A stretch of 64,000 nucleotides of DNA from Escherichia coli. GTDB lineage: Bacteria; Pseudomonadota; Gammaproteobacteria; Enterobacterales; Enterobacteriaceae. Positions 7,037 to 11,161 of the stretch are shown here, one piece after another. Below the pieces are notes generated by a model. It was not told where the DNA came from, searched no databases, and worked only from the letters and a program-made list of their open reading frames with translations. Where the stretch lies: the NCBI RefSeq assembly GCF_044647545.1, contig NZ_CP172818.1, one strand, 5' to 3'. The first letter of the stretch is position 1. The number at the start of each line of letters is the position of its first letter. Made by a program: the position numbers and the translations under genes.

Positions 7037-7441
7037 TAATGTTCATTTGTTATTATTCCGCTCTATCACTTCTCTCGTCATATCCTAGTATTATCAGTTA
7101 GTTAAACAAACAAAGAGATCTGAACATCTTAAATAAGACTATTTAAGATGCATAACTTAGATTCGCAAGATATCTTCTGGTCATTCAAAAACAATTTGCG
7201 ATATAGATATTCTTATACCATGAGATAGTTATCTGGACCGCTCTCAACCATGCAAGATTAAATCAGTGAAACATAATCATATTTGATAACGAGAAATGCA
7301 TTTTTAAATGCCTTACTCAGAATTATAGCAAATACAGATTAATCGCAATTTTTCCCGGCAAAATTACAAAATCATGGTGTATTGACATCATCAATAACCA
7401 ATGAAATTATGCAATTATATACGGATAGGGAGGTTCTTAAC

Positions 7442-8074
7442 ATGGGGCTTTGTAGTCGTTATAAAAGTCTTACATGCAATAGTTGCTCAATGCATTGCCA
7501 AATAATGCCAGAAGAGTCACCGCGTTTGCAGTATTGCGCAAACTCGTGTTTTTGTATGTGGCCCGAAGAAAGTTCATATTTTAATCGTGGTGTGGTGGAA
7601 GGTATCTTAACAAAAAACCACAATGCGAGATTAAGCGGATATATTTTTGTCGATTTTTCAGTAAGCTTTTTACGTCTATTCCTTGAAAAAGACTGGATTG
7701 ACTATCTTGCAAGTACTGACATGGGGATTGTTTTAGTCAGCGACCGAAATATGCAATCGTTAGCTAACTACTGGCGAAAACACAACTCTGCAATATCTGC
7801 TGTCATATATAATGATGATGGTCTTGATGTTGCCAATGAAAAGATCAGACAACTATTTATTGGTCGTTATTTATCATTTACCAGAGGGAACACATTAACT
7901 CAGATGGAATTCACCATAATGGGATATATGGTTTCTGGTTATAATCCATATCAGATTGCTGAAGTTCTGGATATGGATATCCGTAGCATCTACGCGTACA
8001 AGCAACGAATCGAAAAGAGAATGGGTGGTAAAATCAACGAGTTATTTATTCGTTCACATTCGGTCCAACATTGA
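7442..8074 (+). CDS. yqeH: LuxR-family HTH transcriptional regulator (ETT2 island)
   Basis: ORF 7382..8074 begins with TTG; the better start is ATG at 7442, preceded by a GGGAGG Shine-Dalgarno. C-terminal LuxR-type HTH (TQMEFTIMGYMVSGYNPYQIAEVLDMDIRSIYAYKQRIEKRMG). AT-rich codon usage. Confidence 0.8.
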   Translation: MGLCSRYKSLTCNSCSMHCQIMPEESPRLQYCANSCFCMWPEESSYFNRGVVEGILTKNHNARLSGYIFVDFSVSFLRLFLEKDWIDYLASTDMGIVLVSDRNMQSLANYWRKHNSAISAVIYNDDGLDVANEKIRQLFIGRYLSFTRGNTLTQMEFTIMGYMVSGYNPYQIAEVLDMDIRSIYAYKQRIEKRMGGKINELFIRSHSVQH

Positions 8075-8407: not shown

Positions 8408-9217
8408 ATGTACTGGATTATTAACGATAATATCGAGTTCTGGCCTGAGCACCGAAAATTAATATCGGTACATAACGCCGATCTTAACGTCGTTCTGACA
8501 ACGCCAGCCAGTCGTTGTTTATCACTTCTACTTGAAGCTTTTCCTGATGTGGTTGCACAACAAGATTTTTTCACCAGAGTCTGGGAAGAAGAAGGTATGC
8601 GTGTGCCAACTAACACGTTATATCAGAACATATCCATTATCAGACGCGGATTTCGCGCTGTTGGTGATACCACCCACTCGCTTATTGCAACCGTGCCGAG
8701 AAGAGGATTCAAGATTCATAATGACATTAACATACAAAATCATGCAATAAACTCTTCAACAGACGCACATACACACAATGCCCCACCTGCCGTAAAAGGT
8801 AATGCGGGGTACAAAGAGAGCATTGGTGGCGCAAACAATTTCAATAACAAAATCCTCAAACATATAAAAAGTTATCTAATTATGTTGAGCATATTTGCTA
8901 TAGGCGTATATTCTGCACATTGGCTATGGAATAATAATCAACCGAAGCCATTCTTCAAGGATTACAAGACTGTTGCGGAAATTAATGGCTGCCATTTTAA
9001 TGTGACAGAAGATACAATTGATGGGTTGAAAGAGTTCGATAAATATAAGACACGGATACTGGATTCGGGGATTAACTGTAAAAAATATCCGTGGTTATAC
9101 TTCCCTCTTGCAAAATCCTCACCAGGGATGATTGTTATGGCATGCAATAAAAACTATAACCAACATGAAGTGGCAGGCTGTTTAACCCTGTCTTACCGTG
9201 AGGCTAATCGTGATTGA
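8408..9217 (+). CDS. yqeI: ToxR/MarT-like membrane-anchored winged-helix (OmpR/PhoB-type) transcriptional regulator
   Basis: 269 aa ORF; N-terminal region resembles a trans_reg_C DNA-binding domain (YQNISIIRRGF...IATVPRRGFKI), followed by one predicted TM helix (IMLSIFAIGVYSAHWLW) and a C-terminal domain. Confidence 0.8.
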   Translation: MYWIINDNIEFWPEHRKLISVHNADLNVVLTTPASRCLSLLLEAFPDVVAQQDFFTRVWEEEGMRVPTNTLYQNISIIRRGFRAVGDTTHSLIATVPRRGFKIHNDINIQNHAINSSTDAHTHNAPPAVKGNAGYKESIGGANNFNNKILKHIKSYLIMLSIFAIGVYSAHWLWNNNQPKPFFKDYKTVAEINGCHFNVTEDTIDGLKEFDKYKTRILDSGINCKKYPWLYFPLAKSSPGMIVMACNKNYNQHEVAGCLTLSYREANRD

Positions 9218-9632
9218 TTATAAAAAAAACTTATTATTTATTTTAGTTTTTATCAGTGGGTTTATTCTCTTCATTGTTTACTCTTATACTGCAGAAAAAA
9301 TGATATATAATGAAACATGCACTGCAAATTGGGTAATTTTTAATGACAAGGGGCGAGCAAATCTTACCATCGACTTTATGTATAACCAAAAAAATAAAAC
9401 AGGAACTGTTGCGTTGAGCGGAACCTGGCAACAAGGTAACAGAGAAAGTAAGTCAATACGGCGAAATATTGAATACACATGGATTGAAAACTATGACACA
9501 GCCCATTTAACATCAAAGAAAGTTAATAAATTTGAGATCATGGATCAAGTCGATGATGATAGACTTGCAGAACTTATTCCTGATTTTTATGTCTTTCCAG
9601 AAAAAAGTGTAAGCTATAATATACTAAAGTAA
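9198..9632 (+). CDS. yqeJ: Small membrane-anchored protein overlapping the 3' end of yqeI (possible ToxS/FidL-like partner)
   Basis: 144 aa ORF from GTG at 9198, overlapping yqeI by 20 nt; N-terminal TM helix (LLFILVFISGFILFIVYSY). Start codon uncertain (alternative ATG downstream). Confidence 0.6.
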   Translation: MRLIVIDYKKNLLFILVFISGFILFIVYSYTAEKMIYNETCTANWVIFNDKGRANLTIDFMYNQKNKTGTVALSGTWQQGNRESKSIRRNIEYTWIENYDTAHLTSKKVNKFEIMDQVDDDRLAELIPDFYVFPEKSVSYNILK

Positions 9633-9840
9633 GGTAAGCATGCTTTTATTTTGAGTATTGGTAACAGAGCAATAATGCATTGTACAAGGTAAACTTAAAT
9701 AGATAACAAAAAGATGGAACCTCGCTAATCATAAAACAATAAAATTAAATATGCTTGTAGTATATGCCAGTATAAAGCATCAAAGTTTTGATCAACATCT
9801 TTCATTTTAGATATCACCTTGCAATGTAAAATATCATGTA

Positions 9841-10266: not shown

Positions 10267-10513
10267 TATATACCTCACATTTTTACCGTGACTCGATGTT
10301 ACTGTTCAATAATCACCTTCCATCAATACTAAATTTAATACCCCTAATGTGCCGATAACAAATATAGTCATTCTACGTAACGTCTCCATAAGGTGATAAC
10401 CTTGATCAAATGAATTTCGAAAATAATAAAGGAAATCTTTTAGATTTTTCACAAATAAAGTTATTTATTTACCAATATCATTTCGATTCACACTATTATC
10501 TTTTTTTAAAAAT

Positions 10514-10601
10514 AAAAAAAAAAATAATTATTAAATAAAAAAAAAAAAATAATAAAAAAAAAAAAAAAAAAAAGAAATTTTAAAAAAAAAAAAAAAAAAA
10601 A
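10514..10601. repeat. Cluster of long poly(A) homopolymer tracts (about 12, 13, 20 and 20 nt)
   Basis: Directly read: A-runs at about 10514-10525, 10537-10549, 10554-10573 and 10582-10601 in the yqeK-ygeF intergenic region. Confidence 0.95.
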
Positions 10602-10669
10602 GGTGATATTTGACATTATCAGAAGCTGCGAATTCGGATTTTGCTCTAATCAAATGAGAGAAATGTAAA

Positions 10670-11161
10670 ATGAAGCCACGAAATATTAATAATAGCCTAC
10701 CACTGCAACCATTAGTTCCTGATCAGGAGAACAAAAATAAGAAAAATGAAGAGAAATACGTGAATCCAGTTAAAATTACGATGAGGTCTGGTTTAAATTA
10801 TATTGAACAAGAATCTCTTGAAGGAAAATATCTAACACATGATTTGTCAATAAAGATAGCGGATATTTCTGAAGAAATAATTCAGCAAGCAATATTATCG
10901 GCTATGAGCATATATAAATTTCCGATAACAGATGATTTAATGAGTATGGCTACAAATGAACTCATAAAACTGGCCAAAATAGAGAATAATTTAGACCTGA
11001 ATAAATTCTCTACTATATGTACCGACGTTCTATCCCCCCTCGTCACCAGACATAATAAAGAAAAAAAACCAGACGACTTACTACCCTTCGCAAAAATCCC
11101 TTTTTTAATTTTCATCGAAAAAATGGAAATTGATAATATGAATCCAGGCCATGCACATTAA
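10670..11161 (+). CDS. ygeF: ETT2 island protein of unknown function
   Basis: 163 aa ORF starting just downstream of the poly(A) cluster; AT-rich; corresponds by position to ygeF. Confidence 0.6.
   Translation: MKPRNINNSLPLQPLVPDQENKNKKNEEKYVNPVKITMRSGLNYIEQESLEGKYLTHDLSIKIADISEEIIQQAILSAMSIYKFPITDDLMSMATNELIKLAKIENNLDLNKFSTICTDVLSPLVTRHNKEKKPDDLLPFAKIPFLIFIEKMEIDNMNPGHAH

Follow-up and report, generated by a model that had tools for sequence, protein, structure and literature searches.

The yqeI-yqeJ cassette at the edge of the Escherichia coli ETT2 island and a rare premature stop in yqeJ

Membrane-bound regulators and their partners

The orthologues of YqeI and YqeJ in Salmonella enterica are the products of the SPI-3 pair marT-fidL, each 42% identical to its E. 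coli counterpart. MarT activates the adjacent autotransporter gene misL. The likeness between the two pairs extends to a partner protein of 160 amino acids, a partner start codon that overlaps the end of the regulator gene (the −8 start), the presence of the Pfam family YqeJ_C on both partners, and a position in an AT-rich, horizontally acquired island beside a regulator of EcpR_N/LuxR type. The two differ in genomic setting and presumably in their targets: marT-fidL adjoins misL, whereas no autotransporter gene adjoins yqeI-yqeJ at its site on the ETT2 edge. They differ also in that yqeJ is truncated in the DNA analysed here.

The Vibrio ToxR/ToxS system (structures 8alo, 8u2f, 6uue/6utc and 8b4b) has the same architecture in both of its proteins, and its partner gene, like yqeJ, lies directly downstream of the regulator gene. 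ToxRS provides bile-responsive control of porins and of the cholera virulence cascade. The periplasmic parts of ToxR and ToxS nevertheless have no detectable sequence similarity to those of YqeI and YqeJ, and four invariant cysteines are a feature of YqeI that marks a difference from ToxR. The model of YqeI has no helix after its last strand, whereas the ToxR and VtrA domains carry an extra C-terminal helix (PMC9214523). According to Kinch et al. (PMC9214523), a pair of the Cys37/Cys158 type forms the barrel-closing disulfide of the FidL/YqeJ group, a difference from ToxS, and toxR and toxS do not overlap, unlike yqeI and yqeJ.

The same design, a membrane-bound winged helix with a lipocalin-like partner, is found in VtrA/VtrC, the bile-salt receptor of the Vibrio parahaemolyticus type III secretion system T3SS2 (5kev, 5kew). 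VtrC aligned to the YqeJ model with a target-normalised TM-score of 0.63-0.68, and both VtrA/VtrC and YqeI/YqeJ are linked to an island for type III secretion. A paralogous cassette, GrvA/FidL, is present in enterohaemorrhagic E. coli O157:H7 and shares both the architecture and the disulfide-containing barrel of FidL/YqeJ type (PMC9214523); it differs in its locus and in its output, the bicarbonate-responsive activation of LEE (PMC10269533). CadC resembles YqeI in being a membrane-tethered regulator with an OmpR-type winged helix. Its periplasmic sensor is much larger, however, it works with the permease LysP and not with a lipocalin partner, and we know of no partner gene that overlaps cadC. 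The N-terminal part of the CadC periplasmic region is distantly related to VtrA-like domains, although the comparison made by Kinch et al. is of CadC residues 194-316 only with domains of about 85 residues, and CadC has an insertion relative to VtrA (PMC9214523).

The YqeI/YqeJ pair has itself been described. Kinch et al. (PNAS 2022, PMC9214523) assign it to the VtrA/VtrC-ToxR/ToxS 'co-component' systems, with YqeJ as a lipocalin, and report dimeric complexes between the periplasmic parts of the two proteins upon co-expression; it is counted among the co-component regulators elsewhere too (PMC10269533, PMC13042144). In avian pathogenic E. coli (APEC), deletion of yqeI reduced flagella, motility, adhesion and colonisation (PMC7552227, published in 2020). 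A preliminary description of the present locus had called the pair essentially uncharacterised, a statement that these reports contradict. Co-component regulators as a class couple host lipid and bile cues to virulence gene expression, and YqeI/YqeJ is their representative in most E. coli, K-12 included. Since the question of its ligand and direct targets is already in the literature, the pair adds no new kind of system, and the only local novelty is a rare premature stop in yqeJ.

The yqeI-yqeJ locus and its products

The window, by which we mean the whole 64,000-nucleotide stretch analysed, is E. coli chromosomal DNA, in which the genes yqeG-yqeH-yqeI-yqeJ-yqeK-ygeF-ygeG-ygeH stand in this order at the left end of ETT2. 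This identity follows from RefSeq annotation and from 100% matches to E. coli chromosomes. The GC content is locally 30-39%, the EcpR_N/LuxR-type regulator gene adjoins the pair, and beyond about 16.5 kb of the window the ETT2 secretion genes are deleted, with IS2 in their place. A search for promoter-like sites between positions 7900 and 10400 found 17, compared with 12.7 ± 3.4 expected from shuffled sequences, and thus no enrichment; no convincing terminator was found 3′ of yqeJ. YqeI, YqeJ, YqeK, YgeF and YgeG were all without a match in PHROGs, so that a phage origin is not indicated. The data as a whole are best explained by the cassette already known from the ETT2 edge, yqeI-yqeJ, a reading to which we give a probability of roughly 0.88.

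The first gene, yqeI (8408..9217; this and all features below are on the + strand), carries that name in RefSeq genomes and encodes a membrane-tethered transcription regulator of 269 residues, of the ToxR/VtrA/MarT type. Its product matches E. coli clusters at 96-98% identity and the Salmonella marT product at 42% (E 1.3e-58), while orthologues in other genera reach 42-49% identity with E-values from 1e-58 to 1e-81. An OmpR/PhoB-type winged-helix domain occupies residues 28-102 (8489..8713; Pfam Trans_reg_C, E 4.1e-9), and the best sequence match in the PDB, found with phmmer, is the DNA-binding domain of V. cholerae ToxR (8b4b, E 1.6e-7, residues 2-103). The sole hydropathy peak, at about residues 149-174, has a borderline Kyte-Doolittle maximum of 1.59 over 19 residues and contains the single predicted transmembrane helix, about residues 156-174 (YLIMLSIFAIGVYSAHWLW; 8873..8929). 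Directly before this helix stands the lysine- and histidine-rich segment KILKHIK, and such residues on the N-terminal side of the peak fit an N-in orientation.

The remainder of YqeI, residues 175-269 (8930..9214), is a periplasmic domain of about 96 residues with a β2-α-β3 arrangement and four invariant cysteines (195, 224, 246 and 258). The ToxR periplasmic domain was its top match in both fold searches, and it has the small α/β fold of ToxR and VtrA. We conclude that YqeI is bitopic, with a cytoplasmic winged helix, one transmembrane helix and a small disulfide-containing α/β domain of ToxR-like fold. The preliminary description, which had proposed a winged helix, a single transmembrane segment and a C-terminal domain, is thus borne out by the Trans_reg_C match, by ToxR 8b4b and by the single, if borderline, hydropathy peak; the profile search that it suggested for YqeI found the expected family, and the one that it suggested for YqeJ, against FidL and ToxS families, gave no significant Pfam match.

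The second gene, yqeJ, is present as a truncated allele that encodes 140 residues from a GTG codon at 9210 (9210..9632), a start that is supported by PGAP calls in identical genomes and by the K-12 annotation. Its product was expected to be a small protein with an N-terminal membrane anchor, and residues 4-30 (9219..9299) do form a strongly hydrophobic helix, with a Kyte-Doolittle maximum of 2.54 and DYKK directly before it. The AF2 model of full-length K-12 YqeJ (pLDDT 93.4) places a transmembrane helix at the same residues, 4-30, followed by eight strands. When this model was compared with the whole PDB by Foldseek, the best match was ToxS (8u2f_A, E 1.7e-4), followed by ToxS 8alo_B (6e-4), and VtrC 5kew_B gave a TM-score of 0.68 with an E-value of 3.6e-2; the E-values that link these folds are thus only 1e-4, and the TM-scores 0.56-0.68. 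From the model we conclude that full-length YqeJ is bitopic and that its periplasmic part is predicted to be an eight-stranded lipocalin-like barrel with a ToxS/VtrC-like fold. Cys37, which is invariant, and Cys158, which is at least 90% conserved, lie on the first and last strands of this barrel (99 family members).

At the level of sequence the relationships of YqeJ are narrower. Clustered at 50% identity, the family falls into 128 groups, which share their length, the two cysteines and conserved Gly, Arg and Phe positions; a word-indexed search retrieved homologues from Escherichia only, and the other genera were reached by exhaustive profile search. Direct BLASTP aligned YqeJ with Salmonella FidL at 42% identity (E 6e-42), and YqeJ_C (PF27292), a more recent addition to Pfam, has precomputed matches to every close homologue and to the Salmonella partner. 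The Pfam-A scan of both the window and K-12 forms returned noise only (DUF2461 and DUF2149, E > 0.04): FidL_like (PF15941) matched neither form, and it reached E ≤ 0.001 on two of the 99 family members, with weak matches on distant ones. A ToxS family was likewise absent from the scan output for YqeJ, though the library may or may not contain one; PDB sequences searched with two YqeJ-family profiles (A1 and A2) yielded neither ToxS nor VtrC at E ≤ 10; and NCBIfam has no family for YqeJ and gave only sub-threshold winged-helix matches for YqeI. The proposed kinship of YqeJ with ToxS and VtrC is one of modelled fold only, and that with FidL one shown by BLASTP and YqeJ_C.

The truncated allele of yqeJ

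At 9630..9632 the K-12 codon CAA, for Gln141, is replaced by TAA. The T at position 9630 thus creates a stop codon, and the YqeJ product is 140 residues long, compared with 160 in K-12. What follows is an untranslated 3′ remnant of 19 codons (GKHAFILSIGNRAIMHCTR) with the ancestral stop (9633..9692), which in the full-length protein encodes β-strands 7 and 8 (residues 145-150 and 153-159 in the model) together with the conserved Cys158. The window form of YqeJ keeps Cys37 and loses Cys158, whereas the K-12 allele carries both, and a complete eight-stranded barrel is not encoded. A 71-nucleotide probe had exact matches to the T allele in 52 complete genomes and to the C (K-12) allele in 3425; among the identical matches listed are human clinical isolates as well as isolates from wild birds and the environment.

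Is a 140-residue YqeJ still a working partner? It may be imagined as an open or 'half' barrel of six strands, to which the β-sheet of YqeI supplies the missing part; its signalling might then be altered, for instance by no longer needing a ligand. Two observations of Kinch et al. speak for this (PMC9214523): the partner barrel is split and extended by the sheet of the regulator in VtrA/VtrC and in their model of the GrvA/FidL complex, and their Table 1 holds a natural 'half barrel' partner, STM0342, whose existence implies that shortened barrels may be tolerated. The persistence of the allele in 52 complete genomes, and a yqeI gene that is intact by comparison with K-12, point the same way. 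Against it stands the conservation of exactly the part that is missing. Conservation of the lost C-terminus reaches E. albertii within Escherichia, and Salmonella, Citrobacter and Kosakonia beyond it; nearly all relatives of 150-166 residues align to the last positions of the profile; and Cys158, the partner of the invariant Cys37, is rarely replaced among the 99 members. The allele is also rare (52 genomes versus 3425), and in the window IS2 has also taken the place of the ETT2 secretion genes past about 16.5 kb. We consider a functional short YqeJ unlikely.

A further reading, in which the Gln141 stop is a lineage-specific rewiring that leaves YqeI with a six-stranded open barrel, and hence constitutively active or open to proteolysis, we hold to be improbable. 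Were it true, YqeI-dependent motility and adhesion programmes would be altered in the carriers of the allele, about 1% of complete E. coli genomes. The combination of a nonsense mutation in yqeJ with the replacement of the ETT2 secretion genes by IS2 suggests instead that, in this lineage, the sensor half has most likely been crippled and the cassette is probably a decaying remnant. Strains with the 140-residue YqeJ, some 52 complete genomes, are then predicted to be natural partial loss-of-function variants, unfit to serve as 'wild type' for this system.

Pairing, proposed mechanism and the start of yqeJ

Do the two genes belong together, or could YqeI be a stand-alone, one-component regulator like CadC, with YqeJ an unrelated neighbouring membrane protein? 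In Salmonella, Citrobacter, Kosakonia and a distant metagenomic member, the gene directly upstream of the YqeJ_C gene encodes a Trans_reg_C protein, and both this adjacency and the coupled 8-nucleotide overlap are kept across four genera, which argues against mere neighbourhood, even though for one YqeJ_C member (L009) no adjacent regulator gene was found. The NCBIfam CadC model (NF007540) does match YqeI with an E-value of 3e-4, but at 19.8 bits the match falls below the cut-off of 400, and it extends over residues 48-128 alone, that is, the winged helix, whereas the 96-residue periplasmic domain matches ToxR best in both fold searches. The APEC phenotypes came from deleting yqeI alone (PMC7552227), as a self-sufficient regulator would allow; the reported complex of the two periplasmic domains (PMC9214523) weighs against one. 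We regard a solitary YqeI as very improbable, and the preliminary view of a ToxR/CadC/MarT-type regulator with a coupled partner of ToxS/FidL type is upheld by domain searches, folds, synteny and the literature alike. That yqeJ is a chance overlapping frame and no gene, as its GC content of 30-39%, at which long frames arise easily, and its lack of matches in the Pfam-A release used, NCBIfam and PHROGs might suggest, is refuted by its 128 clusters with conserved length and residues, its model confidence (pLDDT 93), its 42% identity to FidL and a preponderance of synonymous over non-synonymous codon differences from K-12 (10 versus 4), and neither yqeI nor yqeJ can be a chance frame since both have highly significant orthologues in other genera.

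For the intact pair, analogy with VtrA/VtrC and ToxR/ToxS suggests how a signal might be passed. The β-sheet of YqeI would dock onto the YqeJ barrel, which may take up a hydrophobic, host-derived ligand of the bile-salt or lipid kind. Ligand-bound YqeJ could then stabilise YqeI, promote its oligomerisation, or both, and the membrane-bound winged helix would in turn activate target promoters. Only for VtrC and ToxS has a bile salt been shown to bind the partner and so activate the regulator. The APEC genes for flagella, motility and adhesion are dependent on yqeI (PMC7552227).

Finally, the junction between the two genes bears on where yqeJ begins. The preliminary description had the genes overlapping by 20 nucleotides; the overlap is real, but its length is 8 nucleotides when counted from the conserved GTG at 9210 to the end of the yqeI stop codon (GTGATTGA). 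The longer figure corresponds to a GTG at 9198, the start of the longest open reading frame, which we reject as it has neither a Shine-Dalgarno sequence nor a counterpart in Citrobacter and Kosakonia. The codon at 9210, by comparison, is preceded at a distance of 6 nucleotides by a Shine-Dalgarno-like GAGG (9200..9203) within the end of yqeI, and GGAG, GAGG or GGGG motifs occur at equal spacing before the −8 start in Salmonella, Citrobacter and Kosakonia. This start is conserved in all four genera, E. coli included; Citrobacter and Kosakonia have no other in-frame start codon from the upstream in-frame stop up to the called start. With either start, 9210 or 9198, yqeI and yqeJ are translationally coupled; the practical gain is that the correct start of yqeJ can be placed at GTG 9210, with the −8 overlap.

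The YqeI-YqeJ pair

The yqeI-yqeJ pair is already known, and the sole new item here, at strain level, is a rare nonsense allele of yqeJ. The two open reading frames lie where the preliminary description placed them, at 8408-9217 (yqeI) and 9198-9632 (yqeJ, in its longest form), and its reading of them as a ToxR/ToxS-type pair is borne out by fold matches to ToxR and ToxS, by conservation of the pair across genera and by the work of Kinch, Cong, Jaishankar and Orth (PNAS 2022, PMC9214523). It also called the pair essentially uncharacterised, which no longer holds. Kinch et al., covering both K-12 and Sakai, list YqeI/YqeJ of E. coli with the relatives of VtrA/VtrC and ToxR/ToxS as "co-component signal transduction systems", regard them as orthologous to MarT/FidL, describe YqeJ as a lipocalin whose first and last strands are joined by a conserved disulfide, and obtained dimeric complexes by co-expressing the periplasmic domains of YqeI and YqeJ (PMC9214523). 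Later papers also count the pair among co-component regulators (PMC10269533, PMC13042144; one writes YqeIJ). When deleted for yqeI, the APEC strain AE81 has fewer flagella, is less motile and less adhesive, and survives serum and colonises organs less well (Xue et al. 2020, PMC7552227); in K-12 a yqeI deletion has at most a modest effect on mtlA expression (2026 study, PMC13421365).

The winged helix proposed for YqeI was found as a Trans_reg_C domain of the OmpR/PhoB type at residues 28-102 (Pfam, E 4.1e-9). Among all PDB sequences the top match is the DNA-binding domain of V. cholerae ToxR (8b4b, E 1.6e-7, residues 2-103), with PhoB-family regulators and CadC ranking below it. Against the NCBIfam CadC model YqeI scores 19.8 bits, compared with a cut-off of 400, implying a likeness to CadC at the domain level only. 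The only hydropathy peak, at residues 149-174 and preceded by basic residues, would correspond to the one transmembrane helix expected; it is borderline on the Kyte-Doolittle scale (1.59). The last 96 residues contain four cysteines that are invariant in 47 diverse homologues, and the C-terminal tail is modelled with a β2-α-β3 order (AF2, pLDDT 82). For this tail the first two Foldseek hits are ToxR (6utc, 8alo_A) and the fifth is VtrA, with E-values of 0.012-0.08 that are unconvincing if taken alone. The gene is intact in the window. Compared with K-12, its differing codons comprise 12 non-synonymous and 11 synonymous, against 4 and 10 in yqeJ, a ratio that is high in yqeI relative to yqeJ; nine of the 12 amino-acid substitutions in YqeI affect residues 113-171 (window 8744-8923), in the linker and transmembrane segment.

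YqeJ has the predicted N-terminal anchor, a strong one (Kyte-Doolittle 2.54) preceded by DYKK. The ToxS/FidL families suggested for it were not recovered: YqeJ has no match in the Pfam-A release scanned, in NCBIfam or in PHROGs, and precomputed protein-database annotations instead assign it and its relatives to a newer Pfam family, YqeJ_C (PF27292). An exhaustive profile search gathered 128 clusters at 50% identity, and nearly all full-length members have 150-166 residues and match the profile through to its end. In a 99-member alignment Cys37 is invariant, and conservation reaches 90% or more at Cys158, Gly65, Gly71, Arg85 and Phe126. The AF2 model of the 160-residue K-12 protein (pLDDT 93.4) has a transmembrane helix (4-30) and eight β-strands, strands 5 and 6 being joined by a long loop that contains a short helix. 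Across the whole PDB, Foldseek gives three matches to this model at E<=0.001, all of them ToxS (8u2f chains A and B, and 8alo_B, the ToxS chain of the ToxR-ToxS heterodimer), followed by VtrC (5kew_B, 5kev_B, 8dml_B; target-normalised TM-score 0.63-0.68) and then classical lipocalins. At the sequence level the relation to ToxS and VtrC was undetectable by Pfam scan or by profile searches of PDB sequences.

The architecture and predicted folds of the two proteins and the conserved coupling of their genes are established here or in the literature, as are the periplasmic-domain complex and, in APEC, the dependence of motility and adhesion on yqeI. By analogy with VtrA/VtrC and ToxR/ToxS, the YqeI sheet may dock on the YqeJ barrel, and a hydrophobic host cue could bind in the barrel beneath the strand 5-6 loop. 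Binding of such a cue would stabilise or oligomerise YqeI, whose membrane-tethered winged helix would in turn activate promoters.

Start of yqeJ and conservation of the pair

The translational coupling of yqeI and yqeJ stands; the 20-nt overlap given in the preliminary description does not. That overlap assumes a start at GTG 9198, the beginning of the longest reading frame, which has no Shine-Dalgarno sequence. Both PGAP and the K-12 annotation begin yqeJ at GTG 9210, where the overlap is 8 nt (GTGATTGA) and GAGG lies 6 nt upstream. A start in this position, preceded by GGAG, GGGG or GAGG, recurs in Citrobacter, Kosakonia and Salmonella, and in the first two it is the sole in-frame start codon from the upstream in-frame stop up to and including the called start. 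This conservation across genera of both start and Shine-Dalgarno sequence shows that GTG 9210 is the real start.

In Salmonella, the YqeI homologue (42% identity) is followed by a YqeJ_C gene, whose product is 42% identical to K-12 YqeJ (E 6e-42), and then by a pertactin/autotransporter gene on the opposite strand; Kinch et al. describe this arrangement, marT-fidL-misL (PMC9214523). A gene with an EcpR_N domain also adjoins marT-fidL-misL there (8409-8858 of that locus, L003). In Citrobacter and Kosakonia, too, where the surroundings of the loci are unrelated, a regulator precedes a YqeJ_C gene of 160 aa and the 8-nt overlap is kept. A distant metagenomic YqeJ_C member is overlapped by 11 nt by a 294-aa Trans_reg_C gene, identified by tblastn as a YqeI relative, and another has an overlapping upstream gene cut off at the contig end. 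The exception to the pairing rule is L009, the locus of one further family member, where a 160-aa YqeJ_C gene (2501-2983) is an orphan partner: no Trans_reg_C regulator adjoins it, and tblastn with YqeI was negative in 5.5 kb. Its neighbours are a CSS-motif EAL protein, a PerC-like gene and a GerE-type gene.

The truncated yqeJ allele

Position 9630 is T in the window and C in K-12, changing yqeJ codon 141 from CAA to TAA, so that the product has 140 residues rather than 160. By comparison with K-12, the stop and the lost 3' segment occupy 9630-9692, and 20 conserved residues including Cys158 are removed. Two 71-nt probes differing only at base 9630 were matched exactly against complete genomes: the T allele was found in 52 E. 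coli genomes and the K-12 allele in 3425 of the approximately 3600 that have the region. The lost segment, QGKHAFILSIGNRAIMHCxR, is kept in E. marmotae, E. albertii and other Escherichia species and conserved also in Salmonella, Citrobacter and Kosakonia, implying that the premature stop is derived. PGAP names the 160-aa form YqeJ and the 140-aa form 'hypothetical protein'.

In the AF2 model the lost residues form strands 7 (145-150) and 8 (153-159), the latter with Cys158. A barrel truncated in this way would probably be unable to close or to form its disulfide, and YqeI is thus likely to be left without a competent partner in the window.

Setting within the ETT2 island

Several complete genomes match the 1.8 kb around yqeI-yqeJ at 100% identity; in all, 3736 of 5426 complete E. 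coli genomes have a match, which is chromosomal in every case. RefSeq annotation gives the order at the left end of ETT2 as yqeG, yqeH, yqeI, yqeJ, yqeK, ygeF, ygeG, ygeH. At 30-39% GC, the 6-16 kb segment lies below its flanks (about 50%), which fits an acquired island. Collinearity with the ETT2-bearing genome MS6198 stops at 16493, inside an orgA/mxiK-like gene. From there to 19000 the window has two overlapping minus-strand reading frames, 301 and 136 aa long, at the place where K-12 derivatives annotate IS2 (16505-17778), and then ygeQ and actS, an order shared with those derivatives; the ETT2 secretion genes past that point are thus missing, with type III secretion structural genes absent from the window. 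Taken together, the yqeJ stop and the missing secretion genes suggest, from sequence, decay of the cassette in this lineage.

Upstream of the pair, yqeH (longest reading frame 7382-8074) encodes a regulator of the LuxR/GerE type whose N-terminal part resembles EcpR (73 bits with the NCBIfam EcpR model, under its cut-off), and an EcpR-type second regulator may travel with the regulator-partner cassette. The longest yqeH frame, from TTG 7382 (230 aa), exceeds the annotated 210-aa gene by 20 codons. Between yqeJ and yqeK lies a 26-codon gene (9725-9805, minus strand) annotated as yqeL or 'hypothetical protein'. Just upstream of ygeF, in the yqeK-ygeF intergenic region, 10508-10602 is a nearly pure A tract of about 95 nt, in which TAAT or GAAAT interrupts runs of 13-21 A; the K-12 alignment breaks over 10398-10600, and the tract length thus seems to vary between strains. 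The ygeF gene itself (10670-11161) is an intact 163-aa reading frame in the window and a CDS in the identical genomes, and is annotated as a pseudogene in K-12.
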